From positions 224,001 through 288,000 of the forward strand of contig OZ242010.1 of the NCBI GenBank assembly GCA_965204745.1: 64,000 nucleotides of DNA, read 5' to 3'. This stretch comes from Candidatus Latescibacterota bacterium. GTDB lineage: Bacteria > Latescibacterota > UBA2968. The notes under the pieces are model-generated. The model ran no database searches. It was not told where the DNA came from and saw only the letters and a list, made by a program, of their open reading frames with translations. The first letter of the stretch is position 1. Each line of letters begins with the position of its first letter. Positions 6,076 through 51,359 of this stretch are shown piece after piece. Made by a program: the position numbers and the translations under genes.

Positions 6076-6186
6076 CGCCTCGCCAAACCAACGCTCCCAT
6101 CCAATATTCCATCAAAAAATGTAGATATGCACCGGCTCCCTGCATATCTTTCCCATACACGTTTCTTTTTTCGCAACCCATCCGGA

Positions 6187-6609
6187 ATGCCCTCCATGAT
6201 ACCCAAAGAAGTCTTTCTTTCCCACTCTGACCATGATCGAGAATTTGTTACACTATTAGCGCGTATCCTACGCAATCACGGTATTCCAGCGTGGTATAGC
6301 CGCACCGATATTGTAGGCGGGTTGCGATGGCATGACGAAATCGGTAGCGCGCTAAACCGATGCGATTGGTTTGTGCTCGTGCTCTCTCCATACTCTGTCA
6401 CATCGCGTTGGGTCAAATCAGAACTGATGTTCGCGCTCGATCAATCTCATTTTGAAGAAAGAATTGTCCCTTTGTTATACCGCGAATGTGACTATGTAGC
6501 ACTATCGTGGACATTGCCTAGCTTTCAAATGGTGGATTTTACGAAAAATTTTGATGATGGGTTTCGCAATTTGTTCCGCGTATGGGGTCTGGGATACAAA
6601 GACCCGTGA
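6187..6609 (+). CDS. stand-alone TIR_2 domain protein
   Basis: VFLSHSDHD, VLVLSPYSVTSRWVKSEL, IVPLLY; start may be 6196. Confidence 0.9.
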   Translation: MPSMIPKEVFLSHSDHDREFVTLLARILRNHGIPAWYSRTDIVGGLRWHDEIGSALNRCDWFVLVLSPYSVTSRWVKSELMFALDQSHFEERIVPLLYRECDYVALSWTLPSFQMVDFTKNFDDGFRNLFRVWGLGYKDP

Positions 6610-11349: not shown

Positions 11350-11550
11350 TCAGCCTGTCGAGCCAAAGTCGGCGACGAAGATGAGGAAATCGGAGAATCC
11401 AATCTCGCCATCGCCATTGAGATCGCACCGGGCGTCATATCGCTCCTGTCCGAGCCGCGATCCAAACTTATCCGCAAAGGTCAAGAAGTCGGCGAAATTC
11501 ACATTGCCATCGCCATTGCCATCTGTGGCGGTCAAGGAATAGGCTTTCAT
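11350..11550 (-). pseudogene. dockerin/EF-hand-like C-terminal remnant ORF
   Basis: DGNGDGNVNFADFL and DLNGDGEIGFSDFL motifs; no signal peptide; ATGA overlap with upstream gene. Confidence 0.6.
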
Positions 11551-28308: not shown

Positions 28309-28427
28309 GGACAACCCCCTGTGCCTGTCCGATAGGAATCGGATGCACACAACCCGCGCAATTTTGACCGACTAGCAAGGCCAAATCTTCATAATTTAAG
28401 CACCGTCGTTTGAAAGATGGGGGAAGG

Positions 28428-29906
28428 ATGCGGTATTCAGTCGTCAACCTACAAGACATTTCTTTAGAATCGACCATATTTCGGTTGGACTCAGAATTTT
28501 TTCATCCAGAGATATTGAGCACAAAAAAATGGATACGCTCAAAGGCGCATTCTACTTTAAGAAAAATTGGGTCAACCATAATTCATCCATCAGAAGTTAA
28601 AAGAAAATACGAAGAAACGGGCATTCAGATTTTACTGGCCCAAAACATCAGAGATAATTTTCTGGATTTCTCTATCAGGGTCTTCATGGCTAAAAAATTA
28701 GAGAACCTGCTAAAAAAAAACAGACTCGAATATGGAGACATAGCACTCACGAGGTCAGGGGCAAATTATGGACAATGCGCGCCATATCTCGGGTTGCCAT
28801 CGAAAATATTTGCCTGTGCTGACGATTTGGTGATAAAAAATATAAAAATTCCCGGCACGTATTTATCCACTTACCTGAATACATCCTTTGGCAAAAATCT
28901 AATTGAAAGTTGTAAATACGGTGGTTCACAACCCCATATAGCACCGCAAACGCTCTACGATATTCCTATTTACACACCATCGGATAAACTGATTCGCAAA
29001 ATTGATAGGCAAATAAAAAACGCATTTGAGTTGACAAAAAAATCAGAGGCCACATATCGCCAAGCCCAAACCCTCCTCCTCTCTGAACTCGGCCTTGCCA
29101 ACTGGAAGCCCAAGCATCAACTGACCTTTGTCAGAAACTACTCCGATACCCAGCGAGCGGGGCGCATGGACGCCGATTACTTTCAACCCAAATACGAAGA
29201 AATCATCAATGCCATCCTAAGCTACTCCGGTGGATGGGATACGCTGGGGAATTTGGCTTACTTAAAAAACGAGAATTTCAAACCAAAAAGTAAAACAGAG
29301 TACAGATACATTGAACTTGCCAATATCGCAGGCAACGGAGAAATAACCGACTGCATGACAACACGAGGCCGAGATTTGCCAAGCAGAGCAAGACGCAAGG
29401 TGTCAGCGGGAGATGTGATTGTTTCATCTATCGAAGGTTCATTGGATAGCAGTGCCTTAATCAAAAAAGAATATGACGAAGCCCTTTGTTCTACGGGTTT
29501 CCATGTGATCAACTCAGGGGTGTTTAATTCCGAAACGCTGCTTGTGCTGATGAAAAGCATAGTTGGGCAGTTGCAACTCAAGAAGGGGTGTAGTGGTACC
29601 ATTCTAACCGCCATCAACAAGGACGAATTTACTCAGATCGTTTTACCGATAATTGCACAAGAAAAACAGACGCGAATCTCGGAAAAAGTGACCGAGTCCT
29701 TCAACTCGCGAAAGCAATCCAAGCACCTGCTTGAATGCGCCAAGCGAGCGGTGGAACTGGCGATAGAGCAGGACGAACAAACCGCGATTGACTGGTTGGA
29801 AAATGAAAGGAATTGTTATGTTCCGCAAAACCATTGCCGAACCCAAATGCACGCCCAAGGCACAGGTGCTTGCCAGAGCACAAAAGAAAATTTGGGCGAT
29901 CAATGA
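28428..29906 (+). CDS. restriction-modification specificity subunit (HsdS-like)
   Basis: RLDSEFF and RMDADYF repeats, two TRDs, PSRARR, STGF. Confidence 0.85.
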   Translation: MRYSVVNLQDISLESTIFRLDSEFFHPEILSTKKWIRSKAHSTLRKIGSTIIHPSEVKRKYEETGIQILLAQNIRDNFLDFSIRVFMAKKLENLLKKNRLEYGDIALTRSGANYGQCAPYLGLPSKIFACADDLVIKNIKIPGTYLSTYLNTSFGKNLIESCKYGGSQPHIAPQTLYDIPIYTPSDKLIRKIDRQIKNAFELTKKSEATYRQAQTLLLSELGLANWKPKHQLTFVRNYSDTQRAGRMDADYFQPKYEEIINAILSYSGGWDTLGNLAYLKNENFKPKSKTEYRYIELANIAGNGEITDCMTTRGRDLPSRARRKVSAGDVIVSSIEGSLDSSALIKKEYDEALCSTGFHVINSGVFNSETLLVLMKSIVGQLQLKKGCSGTILTAINKDEFTQIVLPIIAQEKQTRISEKVTESFNSRKQSKHLLECAKRAVELAIEQDEQTAIDWLENERNCYVPQNHCRTQMHAQGTGACQSTKENLGDQ

Positions 29907-30105
29907 AGATGTGCTCAACGCCGAGGGACTGACCGAAGATGAGGCTGACGTTGCAATTGAGGCAGGGCTAATCGACCCAGATCAAAAGTACTGGTGGCTC
30001 GAGGACTGGCAGAAGCGTCACCGCAAAGCTGAAGCGGATATTCGAGAAGGACGCATCCGTGCGTTTAATAGTCCCAAAGCATTCCTCGATGCCCTACCCT
30101 CATGA
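29818..30105 (+). CDS. putative antitoxin
   Basis: C-terminal IDPDQKYWWLEDWQ...AEADIREGR motif; ATGA overlap with toxin stub. Confidence 0.65.
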   Translation: MFRKTIAEPKCTPKAQVLARAQKKIWAINEDVLNAEGLTEDEADVAIEAGLIDPDQKYWWLEDWQKRHRKAEADIREGRIRAFNSPKAFLDALPS

Positions 30106-30200
30106 GATATATCCAGACCGACCAATTCAGGGAAGCATTTGCAAAGCTCCCGCAAAGCATCCAACGGCGAGCAAAAAAACAGAGAGAATCGGGAACTTGA
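30102..30200 (+). pseudogene. 5' stub of RelE/ParE-like toxin
   Basis: MRYIQTDQFREAFAKLPQSIQRRAKKQ; remainder found at 34005-34247. Confidence 0.75.
30117..30181 (+). repeat. 65-bp direct repeat R1 (copy at 34005-34069)
   Basis: 62/65 identical by manual alignment. Confidence 0.95.
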
Positions 30201-30212
30201 CAGGAGGAAGAG

Positions 30213-31154
30213 ATGAAAAATTTAATTGACTTGAAATCCTTAACCAAACCCGTAGAGATGCTGATCGAAAAAATCTCTAATGTCGTGGGGGTTCTCTATG
30301 AACCTAAGCGGATCGAAAGAGAAGCAGAGGCTCAGGCAAAGGCTGATGTAATAAAGGCTAAGTCTGAAAATGAGATAACTGCTTTACGACAAAGATCCGA
30401 GCACCGACGGATGATGGAGGAGATGAGACATCAAAAAAATATGGAAAGTATTACTGCTAAAGCATTGCCACAATTGAATGACAATGCAGATGCTAGCCAA
30501 ATGGATGATGATTGGCTAGCCAACTTTTTTGCTAAATGCCGTATTGTCTCTAACGATGAGATGCAAACCCTGTGGTCGCGTATTTTAGCTGGCGAAGCAA
30601 ATACCCCTGGTGCTTACTCAAAAAGGACTGTTAATTGTCTTTCGGAGATGGACAAAGACGAAGCTGAGTTCTTTAAGAAGCTTTGCGGGTTTTGCTGGAG
30701 ATGCAAGATAACAAAAGATTTTCTGCCAACAAATTCTTTTGCTATCTCAAATCAAGTGTATCAAGAAGTTGTAAATGATCCAGATTTAGTGTCTCCGCTG
30801 ATATTTGATTCTAGCGATGCGATCTACAACAAACACGGCATAAGATTTGAGATTTTAGAACACTTCGATAGTATTGGACTTATCAAATTTTTTATGTCGG
30901 TGGATGATAATTTTATATGGACATTTAACGAAGATATTGGAATTTTGGGGATATACCAGGACAAGACCTTTTTTCTCTCGCCAAGTTCTATCGAAAAAGC
31001 TCAGCGCACTGTGAGACTTGGGGTGGTCTCTTTTACAGCAGTAGGAGAAGAACTTGCGACCTTGTGTGAAACTGAACCTGTTGATGGTTTTTATGACTAT
31101 GTGAAAACACAGTGGAAAGAGTATTCGCCCCTGGATATTGCTATTGAATCCTGA
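30213..31154 (+). CDS. DUF2806-like protein
   Basis: DDDWLANFF..VSNDEMQTLWSRILAGE..PGAYSKRT; AT-rich. Confidence 0.75.
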   Translation: MKNLIDLKSLTKPVEMLIEKISNVVGVLYEPKRIEREAEAQAKADVIKAKSENEITALRQRSEHRRMMEEMRHQKNMESITAKALPQLNDNADASQMDDDWLANFFAKCRIVSNDEMQTLWSRILAGEANTPGAYSKRTVNCLSEMDKDEAEFFKKLCGFCWRCKITKDFLPTNSFAISNQVYQEVVNDPDLVSPLIFDSSDAIYNKHGIRFEILEHFDSIGLIKFFMSVDDNFIWTFNEDIGILGIYQDKTFFLSPSSIEKAQRTVRLGVVSFTAVGEELATLCETEPVDGFYDYVKTQWKEYSPLDIAIES

Positions 31155-31218
31155 CGTTACGCAGTATGTCAATCCCGAACAGGAAACGAAATGGCGACGA
31201 TTCACACCCAAAATATCG
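31134..31218 (+). repeat. 85-bp direct repeat R2 (copy at 34284-34368) containing a stop codon, RBS and MATIH start
   Basis: 82/85 identical by manual alignment. Confidence 0.95.
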
Positions 31219-32306
31219 AAGACGAGAGCGGTCTTGAAATTGAACGGGAAGATCCGGAAGAGAAGATCATACATCCATTCGATCCCGATCAGATCAAGAT
31301 CAATACGCGCCATATCCTCGTCGAGCAACTCGTCGCACGCATCAAGCACAGTGAGATTGATCTCGCGCCCGATTTTCAGCGTCACAGCAATCTCTGGAAA
31401 GATGAGAACAGGAGCCGCCTTATCGAGTCACTTCTGCTACGTATTCCCATCCCAGTGTTCTATGTCGCTGCTGACGAGGATGATAACTGGTCTGTCGTCG
31501 ATGGCGTTCAGCGTATGTCAACCATTTATGATTACGTGACGGGTGTGTTTCCCTTGACGCGACTTGAATACTTGAGACTGGACGGACAGAAGTACGATGC
31601 ACTTCGGCGACCCTTGCAGCGGCGAATCAGCGAGACCCAATTCATCGTCAACGTCATTGAACCGGGTACACCGCAGGAGGTTATGTTTAATGTTTTTCGC
31701 AGAATCAATACCGGGGGCATGATGCTGAACGCGCAGGAGATTCGCCACGCGCTCAACCCAGGTCACGTCCGGGATTACCTAAAAACACTCGCCGAATCCG
31801 CCGAGTTCATCACAGCTACAAAGGGGAATATCAAGCCAATCCGGATGGCTGACCGCGAGTGCGTGTTGCGCTTTTTGGCTTTTTATATCGATTCCCCAGG
31901 GGAATATACCACCGACGATCTCGATGGTTTTCTGGGAAATGCAATGCAAAAGATCAACAAAATGAGTCATGAGGAGCGCGATGCGTGTAGCGCGGCTTTC
32001 AAGAAAGCGATGCGTGCGGCGTTCGACATTTTCGGCGAGTACGCCTTTCGCAAGACCAGCAGGAGCGATAGAAAACGCCCGATCAGCAAGATACTGTTTG
32101 AGGTCTGGAGTGCTCAGTTGGCGCGCTGTTCGCCCGATCAGATTCGCGTCCTCGTCAAACGGCGCGAGGATGTTCAACGTCGTTTCATGGAACTAATCGC
32201 AAAAGACGATGAGTTTGAACGGGCGATCTCCTTATCGACCAATACGGTTCGGCGCGTGGAGAAACGTTTTCAAGCGGTTCAACAACTCATCGAGGAATTT
32301 ATCTGA
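31191..32306 (+). CDS. DUF262 (ParB-like) protein, Menshen NsnA-like
   Basis: PDFQR, IESLLLRIPIP, VVDGVQR, FRRINTGG. Confidence 0.8.
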   Translation: MATIHTQNIEDESGLEIEREDPEEKIIHPFDPDQIKINTRHILVEQLVARIKHSEIDLAPDFQRHSNLWKDENRSRLIESLLLRIPIPVFYVAADEDDNWSVVDGVQRMSTIYDYVTGVFPLTRLEYLRLDGQKYDALRRPLQRRISETQFIVNVIEPGTPQEVMFNVFRRINTGGMMLNAQEIRHALNPGHVRDYLKTLAESAEFITATKGNIKPIRMADRECVLRFLAFYIDSPGEYTTDDLDGFLGNAMQKINKMSHEERDACSAAFKKAMRAAFDIFGEYAFRKTSRSDRKRPISKILFEVWSAQLARCSPDQIRVLVKRREDVQRRFMELIAKDDEFERAISLSTNTVRRVEKRFQAVQQLIEEFI

Positions 32307-33424
32307 TGCTAAAAAAAATAAGCCTTGCGAATTTCAAATGCTTTGAGCAGTTGGACTTGGACTGCACCTCTCTCAACTTGCTGTGCGGCTTGAACGGGAT
32401 GGGCAAGAGCAGTGTTATTCAAGCGTTGCTGGTGTTGCGGCAATCGTTTGATACCGGGGAATTGCACAACGGCAGACTCGTTTTGGGCGGAGATCGGATA
32501 GACCTCGGCGCGGGTTCAGATGTGTTGTTCGAAGGTGCTGAGCGCGATATTGTGGGTTTTGTGCTTCAAGACGACGAAATGTTGCATGAGTGGTTCATGG
32601 CCTTTGCTTATTCGCGGGATGCCGACCAATTGAGCGTGGTGATCCCCGACAAACCTACCGATTACATATCCGCTGAATGGCAAAAGGCGTCGCTGTTCGG
32701 AGGCAGGGTCGTCTATGTGAATGCGGAACGGGTCGGCCCCCGGAAGTTTTATCCGCTCTCCGAGGTGCGGGCCAGGTACGGCGACTTTGGGGCAAGCGGC
32801 GAGTACGCGTGGAATTATCTGAATCGCCATCAGAACGATCTTTTGCCGGAGAACGACCCCCGTTGCATTGGCGCGAGGCGGCGACTGCTCGATGTCGTCG
32901 ATCAATGGCTACAGCATGTATGCCCAGGCGCGCACCTGCAACTTGAGGCAGTTGTGGACGCCGACGCGGTCATTGCGGGTTTCTCGTTTGACCGGCCAGG
33001 AGATATTGCGACGCGCCGATACCGTGCGACTAACGTCGGGTTTGGCTTGTCTTACGTGCTACCGGCCATCCTCGCTCTGCTCTCGGATCGCGGGACGCTT
33101 TGCTTGATAGAGAACCCGGAGGCGCACCTGCACCCACGCGGGCAGACGAAATTGGCGGAATTGGCGGCCCGAGCCGCGAGCGCAGGGATCCAAGTATTCG
33201 CCGAGACCCACAGCGATCATTTCATCGACGGCGTCCGCATTGCGGTCAGAGATGAACTCATCGCACCGGAGGACACGGCGTTTCACTACTTTGAACGCGA
33301 CGGGAGCGAGACGGTTGTCACTTCTCCCCAAGTAGATGCGGATGGTCGGCTGTCGCACTGGCCGGAAGGATTTTTCGATCAGCACGAAGAAAATTTGGCT
33401 CAACTGATCGGCCCGAGGTCGTAA
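32306..33424 (+). CDS. ABC/AAA ATPase with DUF3696, Menshen NsnB-like
   Basis: GLNGMGKS, NVGFG, IENPEAHLHP, ETHSDH, WPEGFFDQ. Confidence 0.85.
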   Translation: MLKKISLANFKCFEQLDLDCTSLNLLCGLNGMGKSSVIQALLVLRQSFDTGELHNGRLVLGGDRIDLGAGSDVLFEGAERDIVGFVLQDDEMLHEWFMAFAYSRDADQLSVVIPDKPTDYISAEWQKASLFGGRVVYVNAERVGPRKFYPLSEVRARYGDFGASGEYAWNYLNRHQNDLLPENDPRCIGARRRLLDVVDQWLQHVCPGAHLQLEAVVDADAVIAGFSFDRPGDIATRRYRATNVGFGLSYVLPAILALLSDRGTLCLIENPEAHLHPRGQTKLAELAARAASAGIQVFAETHSDHFIDGVRIAVRDELIAPEDTAFHYFERDGSETVVTSPQVDADGRLSHWPEGFFDQHEENLAQLIGPRS

Positions 33425-33425
33425 T

Positions 33426-34247
33426 ATGCGCGAAATGGTACTCAACCACGCGAGCCTTGGTTCGCCCGATCAACATACCGCCGTAGGGTGGCTGAAAGAG
33501 GTGACGGTCGGCATGAAGATGCTGGTTAGGGACAAAATCGCAAAACCTACTCTGAGAATGCGTCAGTCCCATGCTGAAATCCTTTGCCTGTCTAACTGGT
33601 CGCTGGGGGACGCGCTTCAGGAACTGCGGAAAGGTGGGGCGCGAGATGAGTACTTATTTTTTGCGCGCCTGACATCCAAGGTTCCACTTTTGTGCGACAT
33701 CGATCATGAGGTTGCAGATCGGTTTCGGGCGTGCGAGGCGACGACATTGCCGCCGGAAGATGGAGAGCCACTCGTTTTGTGCGCTATCACCGATGGCATA
33801 GCGGTTGGGTTTCCATCGGCTCCGGTTTGGGACTGCGATCAGCTAACGATCCATTTTGATGAACTACTGCCCGATGAAAGTATTGGGGAAGCGTCTGAAA
33901 TAATTGACAATCTCACGCGGTCCGCCCATGTTCAACCGATCTGTGAACGACATCGCGCTGGTCTCTGCGATCAATTCCCAAACGCCGCCGCATTGTGGAA
34001 TGGCACCGACCAATTCAGGGAAGCATTTGCAAAGCTCCCGCAACGCATCCAACGACTAGCAAAAAAACAACTCACCCTCTTTTTTCAAAACTACCGCTAT
34101 CCCTCTCTGCAAACCAAAAAAATGGAAGGTCACAATGATCTTTTTGAAGGCAGAATTACCAGAGGCTACCGCTTTATCTATCGCATGACTGGTGATACTT
34201 GTTATATCATCGACATTGGTACGCACGATGTTCTAAATCGGTATTAA
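33426..34247 (+). CDS. NsnC-position protein fused to C-terminal RelE/ParE-like domain
   Basis: Third gene of operon; last 80 aa (YPSLQTKKMEG..RITRGYRFIY..DIGTHD) RelE-like and begin exactly at repeat R1. Confidence 0.65.
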   Translation: MREMVLNHASLGSPDQHTAVGWLKEVTVGMKMLVRDKIAKPTLRMRQSHAEILCLSNWSLGDALQELRKGGARDEYLFFARLTSKVPLLCDIDHEVADRFRACEATTLPPEDGEPLVLCAITDGIAVGFPSAPVWDCDQLTIHFDELLPDESIGEASEIIDNLTRSAHVQPICERHRAGLCDQFPNAAALWNGTDQFREAFAKLPQRIQRLAKKQLTLFFQNYRYPSLQTKKMEGHNDLFEGRITRGYRFIYRMTGDTCYIIDIGTHDVLNRY

Positions 34248-34340
34248 AGGGCGAAGTGTAGGTAATCCTCCTCATCCTGGGGAGATGTTGCTATTGAATC
34301 CTGACGTTACGCAGTATGTCAATCCCGAACAGGAAACGAA

Positions 34341-34565
34341 ATGGCGACGATTCACATCCAAAGTATCGGTGAGAAAGTGTTGCTGCCACAAAGCGAACTC
34401 GAACGCCTCGTAGAATTGCACCGCGAAGATATCGTCTTGGACAGACGGGAAGACGGTGCGTCAACAGGACGTATCATGCACTTGGTGGCCCAAAGCGGCG
34501 CGTTTGACTTTTGGAAAGAGGAAGGAGAAGATATTTACTCCTTCGAGGACGGAGAACCGGTGTGA
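34341..34565 (+). CDS. putative antitoxin of PemK/MazF-type pair
   Basis: Acidic C-terminus AFDFWKEEGEDIYSFEDGEPV; GTGA overlap with MazF-like stub. Confidence 0.65.
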   Translation: MATIHIQSIGEKVLLPQSELERLVELHREDIVLDRREDGASTGRIMHLVAQSGAFDFWKEEGEDIYSFEDGEPV

Positions 34566-35773
34566 CGCGCCCAACGCTTTTTCGCGGTCAAGTGGTACTG
34601 ACGCGGTTTCCATTTACAAAACAAATTTTAAGGCCGCTTTACATGAATAATCTAGAAATTTTCACTCCTGAAGAACGAGAGGAAAACGAAAAACGAAAGC
34701 GTGAACTAATTGAACTTGTTGCTTCAAGAGAGTCTGTACTCATCGTTGGGGCTGGAAGTAGTGTTCGTGTGGGCTATGTGGATTGGTCTCGTCTTCTAAA
34801 AGAACTGGAGGATTTAGCCATCGCCTGGGGTGAAGATTTTGTGAAAGATGATAGAAAGCGCGAAAATGACCCATTAGAATACGCTGAAGATATCAAATCG
34901 CATATTGATAAAACAGGCAACTTAGCCAAATATCATGCGTTGCTCTATGACTTGTTTAAGCCCAAGACTCCTTCGTTTGATGATTTACACAAAACGCTGG
35001 TCGCGTTACCCTTCAGAGGAATTTTAACGACAAACTACGATACAGTGCTCGAAGCCGCGTTAGCTGAACAAGAACCGCTAACTGCTTTTGACAACTCATT
35101 GGTTATTGATAGCAGATCCGCCGCTCGAGTTGATGAATTTTTCAGGGCAATGATTGATAGCAACCTAACACGACGTATTGCACACTTACACGGAAAATTT
35201 GAGCCTCCAGATAGCATTATTCTAAGTATCAAAGACTACGAAAGGGCTTACGGTTTGAAGCTACCTATAAATCAAGTGCAGAAAGATAGAGATTTTGAAT
35301 GGACACTTCGCCGAAAATTTTTGTGGGCTGTATTCGCTACTCGCCGCGTCGTTTTTATAGGTTTCAGCATGAGAGACCCCTATCTTAACAAAATGTTGGA
35401 GACTGTCAGCACAGATTTGTGGAAATGGGGACAATCTACACACATTGCGATTATGAGTATCTCGCCCCAAAATGCCGATACCGACAAACAAGAGGCAGAA
35501 CTACTCAAAAACAAGTATGGTGTTGACACGGTATTCTACGAAGATTTAGATGGGTCGCATCTACGTTTAGACCATTTCGTCTCTGAAATCTCCAAAGTTT
35601 GTGAGAGTGAGCGTCAGTCAACCATTGCTCCAGCGATAAACCAGCCAAGTGCTAGAGATCGATCCGAATATGAAAAACCAAGACCCAATGAGAGTGCGTC
35701 TCAAGGTGTATTGAATTGGCTAGAACAAGTGAATGAACGTCTGGAAAGGGGCATTAACGACGATGAAAATTAA
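34562..35773 (+). CDS. SIR2_2-family NADase-like effector (own ATG at 34643; in-frame MazF-like 19-codon stub upstream)
   Basis: VGAGSS, LTTNYD, HLHG, FIGFSMRDP. Confidence 0.85.
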   Translation: MTRPTLFRGQVVLTRFPFTKQILRPLYMNNLEIFTPEEREENEKRKRELIELVASRESVLIVGAGSSVRVGYVDWSRLLKELEDLAIAWGEDFVKDDRKRENDPLEYAEDIKSHIDKTGNLAKYHALLYDLFKPKTPSFDDLHKTLVALPFRGILTTNYDTVLEAALAEQEPLTAFDNSLVIDSRSAARVDEFFRAMIDSNLTRRIAHLHGKFEPPDSIILSIKDYERAYGLKLPINQVQKDRDFEWTLRRKFLWAVFATRRVVFIGFSMRDPYLNKMLETVSTDLWKWGQSTHIAIMSISPQNADTDKQEAELLKNKYGVDTVFYEDLDGSHLRLDHFVSEISKVCESERQSTIAPAINQPSARDRSEYEKPRPNESASQGVLNWLEQVNERLERGINDDEN

Positions 35774-38700
35774 ACGAAAAAAATTGCTTGAGGACTTGCA
35801 GAGCTTTGCTTCGCAAGGAAATGGCGTAATTATCGGCAATCCTGGCGTTGGAAAAACATATCTACTGAAAGAACTTCGCCGAAGCCTAAAGTCCGAAGGA
35901 ACGCCTCATCTCCTTTTGCGGATTGACCAACTCGGTGATGGCACGGACAAAACGTTGCGGCAAGTGTTGTCGTACGAAGGTGATCTGATTGAAAAGTTGA
36001 AGTTCGTTCCCACTTCACACGAGAAATCAATTCTATTGTTTGACGCCTTTGACGCTGCTCGAAATGAACAGACGCGCAAACGCTTTCTGCACCTAATCCA
36101 ACGAGCAATCCATGAACTCAGCGAGTCGTGGAATGTCGTCGTTACGGTACGAACTTACGACGCAATGAAATCGCAAGAACTATTGGATATGTTTGGCAAT
36201 CCTTATGGCACCGATCTACCCCAATACCATAGCAAAGAGATTTTATGCCGACATTTCACAATTCCACCTTTGAATGAAGATGAAATTCAACAAGCCTTTG
36301 ACCAGATTCCGCATCTGGAGTCTATCTACAAATCTGGCTCTCAAGACTTTAAGTGCCTCCTTGCAAATCCATTCAATATCTGGCTATTGAAAAAAATCCT
36401 AAAGACCTCACAGAACATTCCCGATTTTAGTCACATTCATTCTGAAGTCCAATTACTCGGTTTGTTTTGGCAACGACGCATTGAGTCTTCAAGCGATGCA
36501 GATGCCCGTGGGTTTATCCTCACAAAGATCGCACGTCAGATGGTTGAGGAACGTTCACTGACCGTCAGGCAGGAAGACATTTATGAAAACCTACGCCTTG
36601 ACAAAGCAATGAGATGGACAGCATGGAATGGTCTCCTAAGCGATGAGATATTGTCCAAGGTTTCCTCAACAGGACAACGTATTGCTTTTTCTCACAACAT
36701 TCTCTTTGACTATGCAATCAGCGTCTTGCTCATTGAAGACGCCCCCAAAAAACTCGAAGTTTTTGTGCGTGAAGACCCATCGCGTCCGCTCTTTCTCCGC
36801 CCAAGCCTCACATATTTTTTTACTCGCCTCTGGTACTATGATGAGGCTCCTGAAAAATTTTGGAACGCTTTCTGGCATATTTTACCAAGCGATCAATCTG
36901 CACATTTGCGTCTATTTGCACGCTTGATTCCGACGAGTGTTGTCGCAAATGAGGCCCGCAAAATCACGCAGTTGAAACCAATTTTGAAGAAACTAAAGCA
37001 GAGAGAAGAACTCGCAAACGAAGCGACAATGCGGCTTTTGCAATCACTCCGTGCCCTACAGATCGAACGCGACGAACTTTGGATCGGGTTCTTCAACCAG
37101 GTTTCGGCACACTATCACGCCGACTTTGCCTGGGATTTGGCAACCCGCACTTCAGATATTCTTGAACGAGCGACAAACACCGATAACACGGCTATCATAG
37201 ACGCTTGTGGACGAGTTGGCCGTCGACTGCTCGGATGGGTATGGCAAGAAAGAGAGACAAGTGGTAATGATTGGTATAATCGGCTTGGTAGTTTTCGGGC
37301 GGTGCCGCTTGTCGCCAAAACGTATGGTACAAATGTCAAAGAATCGCGTCCTCTTCTCGAAAAGGTTCTCGAACTAACAAAAGAAGATAACTTCCCAATA
37401 AATTTTCTCACGCAGTTGGCCAGACATGTTGACAACATTTGGGGTTCTGATCCCGCGTTTGTCGCCTTGACCTATTGCACGGTATTCACACATTCCGAGA
37501 CGGGCGATGCACAGACAAACCTACCCATAAGTAGCCCCCTTTTAACTTTCACAAGCAATCGCCGCCAAGACTACGGCAGTTGTCAATATCTGTTGATAAA
37601 ACATTTCCCCGCCTTTCTTCAGGCAAATCCATTAGTCGCAACGCGAGCGGCGATCCGAAGTCTGATTTTTTTTGTTAAGAAAGAACATATTGACGGATAC
37701 CTCAAAGAAGGTGTGAAGGGTGAAGATTTGATAGAGACATTCGAGTTTCGTGGAAAAGACGCGTACTTTGTGCAAGACAATAGTTGTATATGGGATGAAC
37801 GAGAGTACCGCAATGAACCAATTGAAATTGCGGATAAGTTATTTCAATTCATCGCCGAAACGGCACGGTCAAACGGTTCGCTTCTCGATTCACTGCTCGA
37901 TGTTTTCCGTGATGAAGTGGGAGTCGCTTTTTTTTGGAAACGGCTCTTGAAGACAGCGGCTCAGTTTCCCGATGTTTTCGCACCGCACTTGTTTGAACTT
38001 TGTATAGCGAAACCGATACAAATAGGGGGCGATGCCCTTCATGAGCTCGGTCTATTTTTAGAAGCGGTTGCCTCTAAGTTTACGCCCGAACAACTGCGCC
38101 GGATTGAAGAGACCATTTTGGGACTTCCTTCGGAAGCAACGAGCGAAGATGACGCCAAAATCTTTGAACGACGGAGAAATCGGCTCATATCAAGGATATC
38201 GAGTGACTTGCTTCAAACGCGAGACGCCAAAGAGATCAAAAAAGAAATGGAGCGAACGGATCGAGTGCCCCCAAACGAGCCTTTATTCAGCTACAAATCT
38301 TGGTCAGAACCCTATACTGAAGAAAAGTGGCTTCGAGATCAAGGTGTTGACACCGCCACGCCGGAAAATCAAGAATTACAATGCTTTTTCGGGCCTCTCG
38401 ATAAATTCAGATTAGAGTGGTTAAATAAAATACCAACAGAGGAAGCCACCGAGTTGATTTTACCGCCATTACAGGAGGCATACGCCACCGTAAATGAAAA
38501 TAATAAAGCGACGAAAAAGATAATTGATTCTCTTTGGTATAAGTTGACTGCTTGCGTTGCAGTCCTCGGCCGAGTTACTAACCTTGAGAGCAAATGGTTC
38601 TCTTTTTGCCGTCAAGTGCTTCTACAAGCTGCAAAACATGAACTGCCCAAGCTAGATACAAGCGATGTTCAATCCGATACTCCTATGTATTCCCCATTTC

Positions 38701-39824
38701 CACGGCATGAAGCTGCCCAAGGACTACTAAGGCTCGCAACTCGCCAACCTGATGCGAAAATGTTAGACGCAATTGAGTCACTTGCCAGTGACCCTGTGCC
38801 ATCTGTTCGGACGGTGGCAGCGATGGAGTTGTTCCGAATTTACGACAAAAAGCCAGAAAGATTCTGGAACATCCTAGAGAATAGGGCAACGCATGAAACG
38901 ACTCACGTCGTACAAAAATACCTCTGCTATACATTGACTCAAGTGACCAAGAAAAAAAAAGAAAATGAAGATAAGACGACCCGTATCATGGATAAGATGC
39001 TCAAGCGTACACCGCCACCTAAAGAGAACGGAGAGCTAACAGATTCGTTTATTGATTTGTTGATGGAGTTGGCAATTGACCGCGAAAATTCATGGGCATT
39101 GAAAACTATAAAAGATACCCTTTTCGATGATCCAATCCGATTCGCTAACCCCTTGAGTCAGGCCGTGTCTCATGTTATGGAAGAGTATGTCGTCCCGAAG
39201 AACCTCGAAACACCTCAAAAAGAAAAAACTATTCAACGAGCTATTAAATGGTTGGAACAAGCGATTGATGCCACTTCTTCCGCAGTTCGGGAATTAGCCT
39301 GCAATAATACTGAGGAAAACAAAAAAAAATTGTGTGATGCCTACCAAGTGATTGATGAAGTGATCAAGCGTCTTTACTTTGAAGTTGCATACGAAAGCCA
39401 AACATCTGAGGAGTCCACAGAGAAAATTTCTGGTGAGTTGCGCTGTCGCTTCTATAACGAAGTAAAGTCGCTGATGAAACGGATCATCCATTTCGCATTA
39501 GACGGAGATAACGGCGTCATGTTTGCATCGACAGCACATTACTTCATGCAACTTCTAAGGAGTTTTCTAAGTTGTAATCCAAAAGAGGTCTTGCACTTAG
39601 CCGAAGGTGTCGCAAGGTCGAGTGAACCGTCCGGTTACAATCTCGATTCCCTTGCGGTTGCAGAGGTTGTCAAATTCGTCGAGATTGTCCTTGCCGACCA
39701 CCGGGACGCGGTGAGCGATGAACAAAGCTTGGAAGATATGCTGAATCTATTGGATATTTTCGCCAAAACAGGTTGGTCGGATGCACTTAGACTCGTTTGG
39801 CGTCTCGATGAGGTTTTTCGATAG
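35763..39824 (+). CDS. large STAND/NACHT-like ATPase with long helical C-terminus (Avs-like)
   Basis: Walker A GNPGVGKT, Walker B LLFDAFD, VTVR sensor, NPF, FSHNILFDY; 1353 aa; no N-terminal effector. Confidence 0.75.
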   Translation: MKIKRKKLLEDLQSFASQGNGVIIGNPGVGKTYLLKELRRSLKSEGTPHLLLRIDQLGDGTDKTLRQVLSYEGDLIEKLKFVPTSHEKSILLFDAFDAARNEQTRKRFLHLIQRAIHELSESWNVVVTVRTYDAMKSQELLDMFGNPYGTDLPQYHSKEILCRHFTIPPLNEDEIQQAFDQIPHLESIYKSGSQDFKCLLANPFNIWLLKKILKTSQNIPDFSHIHSEVQLLGLFWQRRIESSSDADARGFILTKIARQMVEERSLTVRQEDIYENLRLDKAMRWTAWNGLLSDEILSKVSSTGQRIAFSHNILFDYAISVLLIEDAPKKLEVFVREDPSRPLFLRPSLTYFFTRLWYYDEAPEKFWNAFWHILPSDQSAHLRLFARLIPTSVVANEARKITQLKPILKKLKQREELANEATMRLLQSLRALQIERDELWIGFFNQVSAHYHADFAWDLATRTSDILERATNTDNTAIIDACGRVGRRLLGWVWQERETSGNDWYNRLGSFRAVPLVAKTYGTNVKESRPLLEKVLELTKEDNFPINFLTQLARHVDNIWGSDPAFVALTYCTVFTHSETGDAQTNLPISSPLLTFTSNRRQDYGSCQYLLIKHFPAFLQANPLVATRAAIRSLIFFVKKEHIDGYLKEGVKGEDLIETFEFRGKDAYFVQDNSCIWDEREYRNEPIEIADKLFQFIAETARSNGSLLDSLLDVFRDEVGVAFFWKRLLKTAAQFPDVFAPHLFELCIAKPIQIGGDALHELGLFLEAVASKFTPEQLRRIEETILGLPSEATSEDDAKIFERRRNRLISRISSDLLQTRDAKEIKKEMERTDRVPPNEPLFSYKSWSEPYTEEKWLRDQGVDTATPENQELQCFFGPLDKFRLEWLNKIPTEEATELILPPLQEAYATVNENNKATKKIIDSLWYKLTACVAVLGRVTNLESKWFSFCRQVLLQAAKHELPKLDTSDVQSDTPMYSPFPRHEAAQGLLRLATRQPDAKMLDAIESLASDPVPSVRTVAAMELFRIYDKKPERFWNILENRATHETTHVVQKYLCYTLTQVTKKKKENEDKTTRIMDKMLKRTPPPKENGELTDSFIDLLMELAIDRENSWALKTIKDTLFDDPIRFANPLSQAVSHVMEEYVVPKNLETPQKEKTIQRAIKWLEQAIDATSSAVRELACNNTEENKKKLCDAYQVIDEVIKRLYFEVAYESQTSEESTEKISGELRCRFYNEVKSLMKRIIHFALDGDNGVMFASTAHYFMQLLRSFLSCNPKEVLHLAEGVARSSEPSGYNLDSLAVAEVVKFVEIVLADHRDAVSDEQSLEDMLNLLDIFAKTGWSDALRLVWRLDEVFR

Positions 39825-46947: not shown

Positions 46948-47178
46948 GCATTTCAGCCTCGAGAATGGTAAAAAATAGCGTTTGTAATTTAGGCAAAAAT
47001 CAATGGCAGGGCAACAAAAACGGCATTGCACACGAGACAACCCGCACGCAACGCCGCCTTCACGAGGTATCAAAAAATCATTGACCCAATATGGTCATAT
47101 CCGCATGGTAAGGGACAAGAGGCGCAGTTGTCAGTTGTCAGCCGCTTTTATCTTTCTGATTTATCACTGGAGTTCCAA

Positions 47179-48009
47179 ATGCCAACACCTAATTCCCCCC
47201 AACGCCCTGAAATTTTGCCCAACGTGAAACACATCGTCGCGGTTGCCAGTGGCAAGGGCGGCGTGGGAAAGACGACGGTGAGCGTCAACCTCGCGGTCTC
47301 GCTCGCCAAACAAGGCGCGGCCGTGGGCCTGCTCGACGCGGATATCTACGGCCCCAACGTGCCCTTGATGATGGGCGCGATGGCGCAGCCCAAATCGCGG
47401 GGACAAAAAATTCTGCCCATTGAAAACCACCAGGTCAAATTCATGTCCCTCGGCCTGATTGCGGGCGAAAATGCCCCTATTATATGGCGCGGGCCTATCG
47501 TGGGCAGAATGATTCAGCAATTCATGATCGACGTGGTATGGGCCGCGCTCGACTATCTCATCGTGGATTTGCCCCCCGGCACGGGCGACGCGCCCCTCAC
47601 CCTCGTCCAAACCGTGCCCGTTGGCGGCGCGGTCATTGTCACCACGCCACAGAGTGTCGCGTTGGAAGATGTCTATCGCAGCATCGCGATGTTTCGCAAA
47701 GTGGAGGTGCCCGTTCTCGGCGTCGTGGAAAACATGAGTTATTTCCAATGCCCGTGTTGCGGGGACCTTGCGCCCCTGTTCGGCGAAGGCGGGGGGCAAC
47801 ACATCGCCGAGGCGTTTGGCCTGCCCCTGCTCGGTCAAATTCCCATTCAGCCCGATATTTGCGAACGCGGCGACGCGGGCCTGCCCATCGCCCTCGATGA
47901 CAACCCCAACGCGCACCCCATCAGCACCAGCTTTGCCGAGATCGCCACGCGCGTTGCCGAGGCATTGGGAGAACGCAAAAGCAATTTGCCGGAAATTACG
48001 ATTGTTTGA
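47179..48009 (+). CDS. mrp: Mrp/NBP35 Fe-S cluster carrier ATPase
   Basis: SGKGGVGKT, DADIYGP, DLPPGTGD, ENMS..CPCC. Confidence 0.92.
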   Translation: MPTPNSPQRPEILPNVKHIVAVASGKGGVGKTTVSVNLAVSLAKQGAAVGLLDADIYGPNVPLMMGAMAQPKSRGQKILPIENHQVKFMSLGLIAGENAPIIWRGPIVGRMIQQFMIDVVWAALDYLIVDLPPGTGDAPLTLVQTVPVGGAVIVTTPQSVALEDVYRSIAMFRKVEVPVLGVVENMSYFQCPCCGDLAPLFGEGGGQHIAEAFGLPLLGQIPIQPDICERGDAGLPIALDDNPNAHPISTSFAEIATRVAEALGERKSNLPEITIV

Positions 48010-48403
48010 AGAGCGCGGTCTGTGACCTGTGACCCCGCCCAACTCCCTTCGGTAAGACGTAAGACGGGAGAGGGGAGGCAACCCCGCCACAGCCTACCCC
48101 TTCGGCAAGAGGGGAGACGTAAGACGTAAGATGTAGGGGCGATGCCCCGTGCTCGCCCGAAGATACAAGAGGGGAGAAGACAACTGCGCTATTCCGATCA
48201 AGGGATCAAGTAGGGTCAGCCTCCATCTCCAAGCCCCGTAGGGATGGCTCTTGTGCCTGTCCTCGTACCCAGCGATGAGGGCGACCACCCAGCGGTCGAT
48301 AGCCAATCTTTGGGGCAGGGCTTGCAGAACGGGCAAAAATGCGTTACATTCAAAGGCAAGCGTCCAATGCCTGTCGTAACTTTAAACCAAAAGGAGAAGC
48401 ACG

Positions 48404-49078
48404 ATGATTGCGAATCTCGCTAGGGAAAAAGACAACTTTCGCATGGCGGTGTTCTGCGAGCCATCCGTGGGTGTGGTGAACGACAAGGGCGAGACGGGCC
48501 TGCACATTACAGCGCGTCTGAACCTGCCCGCACTGACCGAAGACCTGTTGGCGCAGGGGGCCAATGTCAACGTGCAGGCCCAATGGGGCATCACACCGTT
48601 GCACGTTGCGGCGGGGTACAACGCGCTTGAAACGACACAGGTCTTGCTGAACTACGGGGCAGATGTCCGTGCCAACGCGGAATTTCAGGGAACGCCGCTA
48701 CATGTTGCGGGAAAAAAAAATGCTTGTGAGATAGTTGCGTTGTTGTTGAAACGCGGTGTCCCTGTCCATGCGACAGCCAACGATGGCAAGACGCCGCTAC
48801 ACTATGCGGCGTGGCACAACGCGCTTAAGACAGCAAAATTGTTGTTAAATCAAGGTGCCGATGTCAACGTGAAAGACATAGCTGGCATGACGCCCCTGCA
48901 CTATGCGGCGGCGGTCAATGCTCATGAGATGGAAGCGTTATTGCTTCAAAAGGGGGCTGATGTCAACGCGGATGACAAGTTTGGAAATACACCCCTGCAT
49001 TTTGAGAGTCTGTTGGGGTCTGCCACGATCAAAATGACCACAGATGAAATCATGGCATTGACTCGGGGGGAAAAATGA
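48404..49078 (+). CDS. ankyrin-repeat protein with antitoxin-like C-terminal tail
   Basis: About 5 GxTPLH..A repeats; tail FESLLGSATIKMTTDEIMALTRGEK. Confidence 0.85.
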   Translation: MIANLAREKDNFRMAVFCEPSVGVVNDKGETGLHITARLNLPALTEDLLAQGANVNVQAQWGITPLHVAAGYNALETTQVLLNYGADVRANAEFQGTPLHVAGKKNACEIVALLLKRGVPVHATANDGKTPLHYAAWHNALKTAKLLLNQGADVNVKDIAGMTPLHYAAAVNAHEMEALLLQKGADVNADDKFGNTPLHFESLLGSATIKMTTDEIMALTRGEK

Positions 49079-49488
49079 ATGGTCTGCTGGTCGATTCCAA
49101 TGTCATTTTAGATGTCGCTAAAAACGATCCCGATTGGGCGACTTGGTCTTTACGAATGCTTGAACGATACCACGCGACTCACGAGTTGATCATCAATCCG
49201 ATCATTTATGCAGAAGTGTCAATCGGGTATGAAAATATTGAAGAAGTAGAGCGCGTGCTCAAAGAAGGTGGCTTTCACATGCGCCAAATTCCAAAGGAAG
49301 CCCTTTTTTTCGCTGGCAAGATTTTTTTGGCGTATCGCAAGCGCGGTGGAATAAAATGTTCGCCATTACCCGATTTCTTTATCGGCGCGCACGCCGCCGT
49401 TGAAAAATTATCTCTGTTGACGCGAGATGCAAGCTACAAAACAAATTTCCCGACAGTGAATCTCATTTCACCTAAAGAGTCATGCTGA
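49075..49488 (+). CDS. vapC: PIN-domain (VapC-like) toxin
   Basis: LVDSNVILD, YAEVS, PDFFIGAHA, LLTRD. Confidence 0.85.
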   Translation: MNGLLVDSNVILDVAKNDPDWATWSLRMLERYHATHELIINPIIYAEVSIGYENIEEVERVLKEGGFHMRQIPKEALFFAGKIFLAYRKRGGIKCSPLPDFFIGAHAAVEKLSLLTRDASYKTNFPTVNLISPKESC

Positions 49489-49549
49489 AGTCATTTGCTT
49501 TGGAGGCATAGAAATGGCAGACTTAATAACTGTGTCGGTTGATATGTTT

Positions 49550-49628
49550 AGCATCATCAAAAGGGCGGCCGAACAATCTCCGTACGGGGTTTAGAAGCCC
49601 CGACCTTTCAAGGCGGGGAGTGTATCAC
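49550..49628 (+). mobile_element. IS200/IS605-family right-end remnant
   Basis: TAGAAGCCCCGACCTTTCAAGGCGGGGAG hairpin followed by terminal TCAC; left boundary approximate. Confidence 0.55.
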
Positions 49629-49773
49629 AGCCGAAATACGGCGCGTTATTGATTATCCGCATATAGTTGATTCATTAAAAAATGTCGAAATTTGAAAAGG
49701 CTTCGCGGCAGTTGATAGACACATTCAAAACAGGCAAGGTCACCGGTTATCAGTGTCAAAGGGCGAGATACAA

Positions 49774-50100
49774 ATGAGCGAAATCACATTGCATATTCCG
49801 GACGCGCTGACGGGGTTGCCCAAACGGGAACAGGCCATTCTCATGGGCCGTGCGCTGAGAAGTGCTGTTGAGGAGCGCGTGATTCAGGTCGAGGAGGAAA
49901 TCAGGGAGGGGCAGGCTTATTTGGAACAGTACAAAAAGAAGTACGGCCTTTCGTTTGTAGCTTACGAAAAAAAAATCAATGACTTGGAATTTGTAGGAGT
50001 CGATTATCAAGAGGATTACAACGACTGGTATTTCTGGACTGAGTGCGTGCAACGCGCCCAAGGTGTTTTAATAAATTTACGCCAATTTTTGTCGCCGTAA
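49774..50100 (+). CDS. hypothetical antitoxin-like protein
   Basis: KKYGLSF..Y...DYNDW pattern; no intact partner downstream. Confidence 0.5.
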   Translation: MSEITLHIPDALTGLPKREQAILMGRALRSAVEERVIQVEEEIREGQAYLEQYKKKYGLSFVAYEKKINDLEFVGVDYQEDYNDWYFWTECVQRAQGVLINLRQFLSP

Positions 50101-50186
50101 TGAATCTCAATATCCCAAATCAATATCGAGGAGAGGATGGGGCGGAAGATGGGGCATCGTGAACCAGCAACTCGAGGAGACACGCC

Positions 50187-51359
50187 ATGAGCGCGACTTA
50201 TGACATGCTCGTCGCACGGGCAACGGCTATTACTACCGGGCTTTCTCCGGAACGCGCACAGGAGAAACTCCACGCCAATGGCACGTTGCTCATTGACGTG
50301 CGCGAGCGCGAACACTACATCGAAGGGTATATCCCCGGCGCGGAAAACGTGCCGCGTGGGTTTCTCGAACTTCGCATCGAAGGCATGGACAACGACCGTG
50401 ACCGCACGATTGTCGTCTATGGCGACAAGGGCCAAGGCGCGTTGGCCGCACAGGCATTGCAAGGCATGGGCTATGCCAATGTCGCGTACATCCAAGGCGA
50501 CATCGAGGCGTGGCAAAACGCCGGTTTGCACCTCCACCGCGACCGCGCGCTCAACAAGGCCGAAGTGCAACGGTTCTCCCGCCATCTGCTCATTCCCGAA
50601 GTGGGGGAACGCGGGCAGGGCAAATTGCTCGACGCGCGCGTGTTGCTCATCGGCGCGGGCGGATTGGGCAGCCCGACGGGCCTGTATCTGGCCGCGACGG
50701 GCATTGGGACGCTCGGCATTGTCGATGCCGACGTGGTCGACGTTACCAACTTGCAACGCCAGATCTTGCACGGCACGTCTGACCTGGGCCGCCTCAAAGC
50801 CATCTCGGCGTACGAGACCCTCAAAGAGATCAACCCCGGTTGCCAAGTGGTGCCGCACACGGACTACCTCACGTCCGACAACGTCATGGACATTCTTCCG
50901 GAATACGACATTATCGTCAATGGATGCGACAACTTCCCAACGCGGTATCTGGTCAACGACGCGTGCGTGTTCCTGAAAAAGCCCATCGTGGATGGCAGCA
51001 TTTTCCGATTCGAGGGCCAAGTCACGGTCTATACGTGCGACAGCGAGGGGCCGTGCTACCGATGCCTGTACCCCGCGCCGCCGCCGGCAGATTTGGCGCC
51101 GTCGTGAGACGAAGCAGGCGTGTTGGGCGTTTTGCCCGGCACGGTTGGCCTCGTGCAGGCCACTGAAGTCGTCAAACTCATTCTCGGTCAGGGCAACCCG
51201 CTCATCGGTCGCTTGCTGATGTACGATGCCCTGCAAATGAACTTCAACACGTTCAAAATCCGCCGCGACCCGACCTGCCCAGTCTGCGGAGACAATCCCA
51301 CGATCACGGAATTGATAGATTATCAAGCCTTCTGCTCGATGGATCACGGTGAGAAATGA
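50187..51359 (+). CDS. moeB: rhodanese-MoeB/ThiF adenylyltransferase, probable selenoprotein (UGA at 51105-51107)
   Basis: GAGGLG, NLQRQ, CYRC, PS*DEAGVLGVLPG continuing in frame to CPVC; SECIS-like hairpin. Confidence 0.85.
51119..51143 (+). promoter_or_regulatory. putative bacterial SECIS element
   Basis: 10-bp stem CGUGUUGGGC/GCCCGGCACG, loop GUUUU, starting 11 nt after UGA. Confidence 0.7.

Follow-up and report, generated by a model that had tools for sequence, protein, structure and literature searches.

A truncated vapB-vapC segment inserted in frame into an ankyrin-repeat gene of a sponge-associated Latescibacterota bacterium

A type II antitoxin is described as having two modules: a head that binds DNA and a tail that binds the toxin. 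The tail is flexible before it binds the toxin and, in solved VapBC complexes, the VapB tail covers the active site of the PIN-domain toxin. Here we describe a locus in which ankyrin repeats stand in the place of the head: an open reading frame (ORF) of five and a half ankyrin repeats ends with the tail of a VapB antitoxin and overlaps a vapC gene. It is located in a 64,000-nucleotide stretch, the window, of Candidatus Latescibacterota bacterium (GenBank assembly GCA_965204745.1, contig OZ242010.1). The bacterium is sponge-associated and its genome, G000, is a single contig of 5.48 Mb in which the window occupies G000:C1:224001-288000. Positions are those of the window unless otherwise indicated; other G numbers designate the further genomes compared, X numbers public metagenome runs and L numbers homologous loci. 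The principal features are:

48404..49078, plus strand: chimeric ORF of 224 amino acids (aa), ankyrin repeats followed by the C-terminal tail of VapB (Pfam, AF2 model)
48404..49004, plus strand: ankyrin-derived part, five repeats and helix 1 of a sixth (identity to the paralogue and to the G016 and G018 proteins; insert-free contigs share the sequence up to 49004)
49005..49078, plus strand: last 24 codons and stop of an AbrB-type vapB, presumed toxin-binding tail (nucleotide homology to vapBC of congeners, BLASTP)
49075..49488, plus strand: vapC, PIN-domain toxin of 137 aa (PF01850 at 2.9e-10; acidic residues kept)

The closest described systems are the AbrB/SpoVT-type VapBC modules (for example, Rickettsia felis VapBC2, PDB 3zvk, and Shigella flexneri VapBC). 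The locus shares with them a PIN toxin with four acidic residues, an antitoxin gene upstream and an ATGA overlap, and the C-terminal 23 residues of the chimera are identical to those of bona fide congener VapBs. It differs in that ankyrin repeats replace the AbrB domain, which provides DNA binding and dimerisation. The locus is a VapBC-like module that fails two defining features: the DNA-binding head is missing, and the antitoxin has 224 aa with a confidently folded repeat domain, compared with about 70-100 aa for the small and labile VapB. A further comparison is with PIN_3 modules (PF13470/TIGR00305) such as those of G010 and G011. The C-terminus of their antitoxin of about 80 aa has a homologue in the native tail of the ankyrin family, and in G018 the ankyrin ORF occupies the antitoxin position with a 4-bp overlap. 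However, both the toxin family and the tail are different, and in the window copy the native tail has been lost through the insert, with no PIN_3 gene present. With CapRel-SJ46, which is said to be a sensor-type fused toxin-antitoxin, the likeness is conceptual only: a non-DNA-binding domain on the neutralising element could sense a trigger, but the present locus shows no trigger or phage link.

To judge from domain matches, the genus also fuses ankyrin repeats to a toxin, DarT. Six congeners (L148 in G014, L149 in G020, L153 in G015, L154 in G009, L156 in G011 and L157 in G004) encode proteins of 391-464 aa followed, 34-39 nt downstream, by an ORF of 225 aa. In the L153 and L157 proteins the N-terminal part is a DarT domain (PF14487, 2.7e-17 and 4.6e-20) and the C-terminal part consists of ankyrin repeats; the other four loci were judged by the agreement of their N-termini. 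The 225-aa ORF was tested in L153 only, where it is a DarT1-associated NADAR antitoxin (PF22397, 2.8e-84). As in the window, ankyrin repeats are fused to a toxin-antitoxin component in the same genus, but here they are carried by the toxin (PF14487) and the antitoxin is an enzyme (PF22397).

The passages of PMC4803016 drawn on here describe type II antitoxins as neutralising by a toxin-binding domain that is unstructured, wraps around the toxin and hides its active site. They also present epsilon, of the three-component omega-epsilon-zeta system, as an antitoxin without a DNA-binding domain. The likeness with this type is that neutralisation and regulation are on separate parts, the neutralising part working without DNA binding; the difference is that the regulator is a separate gene there, with none evident here, and that the additional domain in our case is an array of protein-binding repeats. 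Ankyrin repeats also occur in the Imm-ank immunity proteins of polymorphic toxin systems which, in the part of Zhang et al. (2012, PMC3482391) used here, are directed against secreted Tox-AHH nucleases. In both cases an ankyrin-repeat protein that is presumed to be protective is encoded beside a toxin but, as far as that part of the source goes, the repeats themselves are taken as the immunity domain in Imm-ank, whereas here a grafted VapB tail would act against a cytoplasmic PIN RNase. Identity with Imm-ank was rejected: the neighbour is a stand-alone PIN protein of 137 aa, the flanks are mrp and a moeB-like gene, and no secreted multidomain toxin adjoins the ORF.

The chimeric ORF begins with an ATG at 48404, preceded at 7 nt by a Shine-Dalgarno sequence (AAGGAG), and ends in an ATGA overlap with vapC (ATG at 49075-49077, TGA at 49076-49078). 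A preliminary description of this DNA had reported an ankyrin ORF with a 25-aa tail overlapping a PIN gene in this way; both ORFs and the overlap were confirmed, and a metagenome contig (from X2, see below) bridges the junction. Pfam identifies Ank_2 (8.4e-43) and Ank (1.3e-35, in five stretches), and the 33-aa ankyrin period is visible in the DNA as direct repeats 99 nt apart, at 48593, 48692, 48791 and 48890. Residues 1-199 are matched by ankyrin families only, with the exception of one sub-threshold HTH_18 match in Pfam (19.6 bits at residues 157-187, where the cut-off is 33.6); we regard it as chance. The AF2 model of the 224-aa protein has five complete helix pairs (residues 30-182), with pLDDT above 90 over residues 30-199, and helix 1 of a sixth repeat at residues 197-206. 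The tail (200-224) is modelled with low confidence (pLDDT 45-55) and includes a short helix at 213-220; it is predicted to be flexible. We considered whether the VapB tail might be a cap completing the sixth repeat. In one protein, P0161, helix 2 of an ordinary repeat aligns weakly with the tail, but the tail is undocked in the model, which does not support a cap. A Legionella-type Dot/Icm ankyrin effector (AnkY, AnkH and others in NCBIfam) was also rejected, the best score being 90 bits against a cut-off of 600, over the repeats only.

The tail, FESLLGSATIKMTTDEIMALTRGEK, is encoded at 49001-49075. Pairwise BLASTP of the 71-aa VapB of a congener (G004) against the chimera gives 23 identities in 25 (E 6e-14). 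The last 25 residues of the congener VapB, YKSLLGSATIKMTTDEIMALTRGEK, correspond to VapB residues 47-71, while its AbrB/MazE domain is found at residues 2-44 (PF04014 1.4e-13; TIGR01439 3e-12). This bears out the earlier suggestion that the tail is the C-terminus of an AbrB/MazE-type antitoxin; nearly all of the non-AbrB part of VapB (47-71) has been retained. The last 23 residues of the chimera are identical to those of the VapB located 5' of the VapC homologue in all four congener loci examined (L002, L003, L004 and L007). The comparison of VapB is confined to these four loci; the DNA matches of L005 and L006, which lie on the minus strand, also begin at 49005. Homology with congener vapBC at the DNA level runs from 49005 to about 49472, and the 23 shared tail codons show eight silent and no replacement differences from L002. 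In another genus, the VapB of L008 reads FES at the corresponding tail position.

Homologues of the tail, for which the preliminary description had proposed a search, were found among antitoxins in a scan of public metagenome contigs; the counts given here are from the best 80 loci. The scan picked up the motif KMTTDEIM, and all of the best 80 loci match the chimera in the tail only. The AbrB loop motif is present in 76 of the 80 ORFs; of the remaining four, two run off the end of their contig, a third carries a variant motif and seems intact, and the fourth is unclear. In 66 of the 80 an ORF of 100 aa or more comes next and, among those listed, begins with an LVDSNV-like sequence. The tail KMTTDEIMALTRG is almost invariant across the metagenome loci. 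Since these loci share both the tail and the AbrB loop motif, the tail is, on sequence grounds, part of a large and highly conserved VapB family with AbrB as its normal head. The AbrB half of the vapB from which the tail derives was found neither at the locus nor elsewhere in the G000 genome: tblastn with VapB returns only the tail (at 273001-273075 of the genome) and one unrelated AbrB protein (39% identity). This vapB has no other copy in the genome, which makes the chimera the sole cognate antitoxin. At the moxR site, where G013 and G002 carry vapBC, G000 has none, and the nearest known vapC is 79% identical. In G002 (L014, 869-2211) an intact 71-aa vapB lies beside moxR, with vapC replaced by the gene of a 368-aa AAA_21/AAA_15 ATPase (PF13304 9e-30); this vapB is an orphan antitoxin of the same VapB family.

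The 137-aa product of vapC matches the PIN family (PF01850) at 2.9e-10 (41.3 bits against a cut-off of 23.6). The NCBIfam VapC model gives 34.3 bits, under its cut-off of 80. There are 2816 relatives at E<=0.001 in a representative library. All four acidic residues are present: in an alignment of 46 sequences D7, E47 and D100 are invariant and D118 is at least 90% conserved. A search of 41 genomes gave a match in 12, including G000, where vapC is single-copy. The homologues are 77-79% identical in six of the 20 other genomes of the genus, and 71%, 61% and 55% identical in three further genera. The ATGA overlap of vapB and vapC is also found in all four congener loci examined. Relative to L002, the window VapC has a rate of replacement change (dN) of 0.156 and of silent change (dS) of 0.65. 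Even the closest of the solved VapCs are remote relatives: with the family profile, 6nkl is matched at E 1.2e-4 and 3zvk at E 3.8e-4.

The way in which the two parts came together can be followed from the flanking genes and from insert-free contigs. The features concerned are:

48010..50186, no strand: strain- or species-specific insert between mrp/apbC (47026-48009) and a moeB-like gene (from 50187), from the spacing in congeners
49005..49628, no strand: inserted segment of 624 bp with truncated vapB, vapC and 140 bp of 3' flank, from its presence or absence in metagenome contigs
49630..49695, plus strand: remnant of the native tail (PIN_3-antitoxin type), with AEIRRVID, cut off behind the insert (motif scan of the genome)

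A DNA search places mrp and the moeB-like gene 62-180 nt apart in 14 of 15 same-genus genomes (the fifteenth, G007, in 280 contigs, yields only a fragment), compared with 2177 nt in the window. Because the two genes are close together in congeners, 48010-50186 is an insert peculiar to this lineage. The region 48700-49400 is present in 16 public runs from seven studies, several labelled sponge metagenome. Contigs were compared from four of these, each from a different study (X2, X6, X10 and X11). A 2619-nt contig of X2 spans 48253-49529 without a break and crosses the junction; with 17 differences from the window, it does not represent the same data. X10 and X11 each provide one contig that joins 49004 to 49629 without the 624-bp segment, with further letters possible between the two sides. 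These contigs make the locus polymorphic and define the inserted unit as 49005-49628. In X11 the depths (a single figure per contig) are 38.6 for the ankyrin contig, 31.2 for the cassette contig and 6.7 for the joint contig, and fit two alleles sharing the ankyrin part.

These contigs also bear on the possibility that the junction is an artefact, two unrelated genes having been joined in assembly or sequencing. The assembly behind the window is a single contig, and in X11 contigs end at 48993 and begin again at 49001, right at the junction. Such a break fits a branch between two alleles, however (31.2 + 6.7 versus 38.6), and the junction is not an assembly artefact because the X2 contig (48253-49529), from a different study, spans it. 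We regard the artefact as having a negligible chance of being correct.

The ankyrin part belongs to a small family with a tail of its own. Window 48389-48994 shares 82% DNA identity with a paralogue in the same genome (G000:C1:1498767-1499371), located between trpB and an aldolase gene. The closest proteins are that of G016 (79%, at the same trpB-aldolase site), that of G018 (75%) and the paralogue (74%, G000:C1:1498761-1499357), and all family matches to the ankyrin part end at residue 199-202. This tail-bearing family has four members in three of the 21 genomes of the genus, and its genes are constrained, since dN/dS is 0.26-0.56 between members. The end of the G016 protein has 26 identities in 44 with the last 44 residues of the G010 PIN_3 antitoxin (E 8e-15); the native ankyrin tail ends SEEIERVIDEARRAVRMRRS and the PIN_3 antitoxin SEEIEQIIGESRRAVRARGS. 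In G018 the 4-bp overlap is with an intact PIN_3 gene of 144 aa (PF13470 7.3e-23; TIGR00305 1.5e-18), whose nearest homologues, in G010 (64%) and G011 (62%), are preceded by the protein of about 80 aa, which belongs to no Pfam family. Compared with the G016 tail, those of G018 and of the paralogue are shorter, the two gaps being 1 nt and 83 nt long (sum 84); another frame is read between the two gaps and the last approximately 17 residues remain in frame.

In the six frames of the 5.48-Mb genome, the motif E[IL][ERKQ]R[VAI]ID has just two occurrences, in the tail of the paralogue and at 49630-49695, immediately behind the insert, where its frame continues to a stop codon. From this sequence match we take 49630-49695 to be a remnant of the native tail of the ankyrin gene, severed by the insert; if 49004 and 49629 are joined directly, AEIRRVID is one frame off. 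A promoter-less, 5'-truncated vapB-vapC segment has been inserted into a pre-existing ankyrin gene at the repeat/tail boundary. The preliminary description had proposed that the DNA-binding half of the antitoxin was replaced by ankyrins. The AbrB half is indeed gone, with ankyrins in its place, but the direction of the event was different: it was the vapB-vapC segment that entered an existing ankyrin gene. As judged from these homologies, a single ankyrin scaffold carries two antitoxin tails that are unrelated to each other, each coupled to a different PIN family.

A search for other pairs of this kind, also suggested at the start, gave no second VapB-tail fusion, although the same ankyrin family does carry the PIN_3-antitoxin tail. 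With chimera residues 185-224 as query against a collection of 5.8 billion proteins, one of seven candidates of 123-392 aa matched, in the ankyrin part only; at lengths of 393-2000 aa there were 11 matches among 40 candidates, each covering 38-63% of the 40 residues and read as the ankyrin part. P0161, with 100% query cover, was rejected as a second fusion, its aligned tail match being an ordinary ankyrin repeat. The G016 tail (205-251) gave none among 25 candidates of 138-440 aa. The genus seems to be missing from the collection because the G016 query protein itself was not recovered. Across 24 loci of the genus, another 34 ankyrin ORFs were examined and none had an antitoxin-like tail. In G000, with six ankyrin loci and 12 PIN and four PIN_3 matches, the chimera gene alone among the ankyrin genes adjoins a PIN gene. 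In the literature searched, listings and the openings of abstracts outside the subscription journals described no ankyrin-antitoxin fusion. Two other observations concern ankyrin and PIN_3 genes of the genus. Between the ankyrin gene and trpB of G016 (L018, 2783-3308), an antitoxin-like ORF (123 aa as called) overlaps a 90-aa PIN_3 fragment (PF13470 6.9e-4), a second, decayed module at the trpB-aldolase site. In addition, L140-L144 (G004, G014, G015, G007 and G013) encode conserved ankyrin proteins of 216-240 aa with a hydrophobic, membrane-anchor-like end, distinct from the tail-bearing family.

We think it probable, though well short of certain, that the chimera is a non-DNA-binding antitoxin for VapC, held in frame by addiction. 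The vapB fragment landed in frame and one protein is predicted, with five and a half ankyrin repeats and a flexible VapB tail. This protein would most likely neutralise VapC by laying the tail over the PIN active site, and the ATGA overlap would keep the two genes translationally coupled. As the AbrB domain is absent from the chimera, neither binding to the vapBC operator nor autoregulation is expected, and expression would be set by the ankyrin gene's own signals. Addiction could then hold the in-frame state, since translation of the ankyrin ORF that stopped before the tail would free VapC. More speculatively, the ankyrin domain might act as a sensor of a partner, or be cargo guarded by the toxin. 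A complex of VapC with chimera residues 127-224 was modelled in three runs with three controls. It gave ipSAE values of 0.53, 0.54 and 0.55, compared with 0.00 for all three controls, with a partner pLDDT of at least 78 and a contact agreement between runs of at least 86%. For this pair the modelling put forward in the preliminary description reaches the grade 'weak support', a mark attained by 116 of 157 solved complexes and two of 215 mismatched pairs; among those passing, an ipSAE of 0.60 or less is found in only 18 of the 157 solved complexes and in both mismatched pairs.

Several observations weigh against a working antitoxin, and many of them fit another reading, in which the pair is a decaying relic: a recent neutral or slightly harmful insertion in a rearrangement hot spot, with a VapC that is attenuated, dead or unexpressed and a pair that is on its way out. 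The complex score gives weak support only, and VapBC complexes are already known to the model. None of the public runs that contain 48700-49400 is an RNA run. Scanning 47950-50250 for promoters and terminators gave a single promoter-like site, which is on the minus strand, and no terminators, fewer than in shuffled sequences and uninformative as a whole; no promoter-like site lies upstream of the chimera. The insert is probably young: it is polymorphic, present or absent among strains about 99% identical, and is therefore probably recent, so that conservation of the tail could predate the fusion. Between the window and X2, eight codons in ank-tail-vapC are changed, all of them replacements and none silent (T36A, G103A and S202L in the chimera; K94R, C95R, S113P, N124D and S136P in VapC), and the window VapC is one codon short immediately after D118 relative to X2 and X11. 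The X2 residue is that of all four congeners at K94/C95 and N124, and of two of the four at S113. The eight replacements and the missing codon look like relaxed selection on the window copy. The dN/dS of the window VapC relative to congeners, 0.20-0.24, is above the 0.11-0.18 among congeners, and the junction residue S202 varies (L in X2, R in X11). The relatives point in the same direction. The G016 PIN_3 gene keeps its first 24 residues, then diverges and stops at codon 45, and the G000 paralogue is without any PIN_3 gene. From this truncation and loss, ankyrin-tail pairs decay, and the ankyrin-tail protein can persist without its toxin (lost in two of three relatives). The vapB orphaned in G002, where an AAA_21 gene replaces vapC, and the orphan antitoxin-like ORF115 and REP-like repeats of the locus itself (see below) can be added to the list.

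Decay is a live rival because, compared with the sister strain, the window VapC has five residue changes, none of them silent, and a missing codon. We nevertheless judge it rather unlikely. Frame-breaking indels are absent from both ORFs in three strain variants (the window, X2 and the two X11 contigs abutting the junction), the only length change being the 3-nt insertion in vapC. All four acidic PIN residues and the ATGA coupling are kept, and 22 of the 23 tail residues are free of replacement across the variants. In both parents the break lies at a domain boundary, following helix 1 of the sixth repeat in the one and two to three residues past the AbrB domain in the other. In addition, eight codons are too few to separate neutrality from selection (0.75^8, about 0.10). 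A relic would require the in-frame tail to be due to chance (one in three) or to have been needed only briefly, to which we give the same limited credit. The other alternative assigns a role to the repeats themselves. They might sense a phage or host protein and so free the RNase, or be guarded cargo, with lost ankyrin expression punished by the toxin. The occurrence of two unrelated antitoxin tails and two PIN families on one scaffold speaks for this, as do the tail kept in frame by compensating gaps of 1 nt and 83 nt, the constraint on the ankyrin domain between species noted above and, in six congeners, the DarT toxins that are fused to ankyrin repeats and adjoin a NADAR antitoxin. Among the differences listed between the window and X11 (there are 42 more), 17 are replacements and four are silent, and PADLOC matches the ankyrin part, over the repeats only, to the candidate defence protein PDC-M72A (3e-33). 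Yet no ligand is known and no phage context is seen, the family has only its four members, none of which was found in the protein collection or the metagenome scan, and the toxin has been lost in two of the three native-tail members. These findings are consistent with one old fusion and one recent insertion in which the ankyrins have no role. Ankyrin control thus appears improbable, and we are equally doubtful of its more general form, in which the repeats would be a reusable toxin-antitoxin front end, the scaffold taking interchangeable PIN_3 and VapB tails and sensing a phage or host protein to release the toxin.

If the chimera works as an antitoxin, a VapB tail of 24 residues would be enough to neutralise a toxin on a foreign carrier, and autoregulation would be dispensable. 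With only two genes, the locus would then make a compact system in which to test whether toxin release can be controlled by a protein-binding domain. The DNA-binding head has been replaced by a protein-binding repeat array twice, on the same scaffold and with two unrelated tails. Ankyrin sensing, if true, would amount to a protein-sensing, transcription-independent triggering of type II toxins. Since alleles with and without the insert coexist in close strains, the event has been caught in the act and provides rare material on how addiction constrains gene fusion. If the chimera fails, the locus would illustrate clearly how a toxin-antitoxin pair decays in a recombination hot spot.

The lineage-specific insert includes, in order, REP-like repeats, the chimera, vapC and a further ORF. 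The two features not described above are:

48032..48221, no strand: short interspersed REP-like repeats 5' of the ankyrin gene (blastn against its own genome)
49753..50100, plus strand: ORF115, candidate orphan antitoxin (its G008 homologue adjoins TumE)

By blastn there are about 100 copies of 48040-48090 and about 140 of 48140-48180 in the G000 genome, and contig depth over the REP-like stretch is very high in all four runs. A smaller repeat lies at the right end of the insert (49554-49627; depth 285 in X11). ORF115 has no match in Pfam, NCBIfam or PADLOC, and it is absent from the X2 contig, which jumps from 49529 to 50125. In G008 (L015, 1683-2401) its homologue lies directly 5' of a TumE toxin gene (PF20126 6e-19), between the aldolase gene and trpB. 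From this position it looks like an orphan antitoxin and can be considered a candidate for one. The trpB-aldolase gap itself looks like a hot spot for toxin-antitoxin cassettes; G016 and G000 keep the ankyrin paralogue there.

On the right, the insert is bordered by a moeB/thiF-like gene with an N-terminal rhodanese part (50187-51359), which appears as two ORFs split by an in-frame TGA at 51108-51110. The same TGA is found in the congener G001, and ARAGORN identifies a tRNA-SeC(tca) in the G000 genome. The TGA is located at what we take to be the cysteine preceding (A/D)EAGVLG in these enzymes, and we consider the gene to be a candidate for a selenocysteine enzyme and not a broken gene. Elsewhere in the window, a 2545-aa ORF (11550-19184, minus strand) has no Pfam family at E<=1e-5. 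Two adjacent TIR_2 genes are located at 5662-6606, and a defence island at 26083-39821 includes an N6_Mtase/HSDR_N fusion, DUF2806, GmrSD_N, AAA_15 with DUF3696, SIR2_2 and a NACHT NTPase of 1363 aa.

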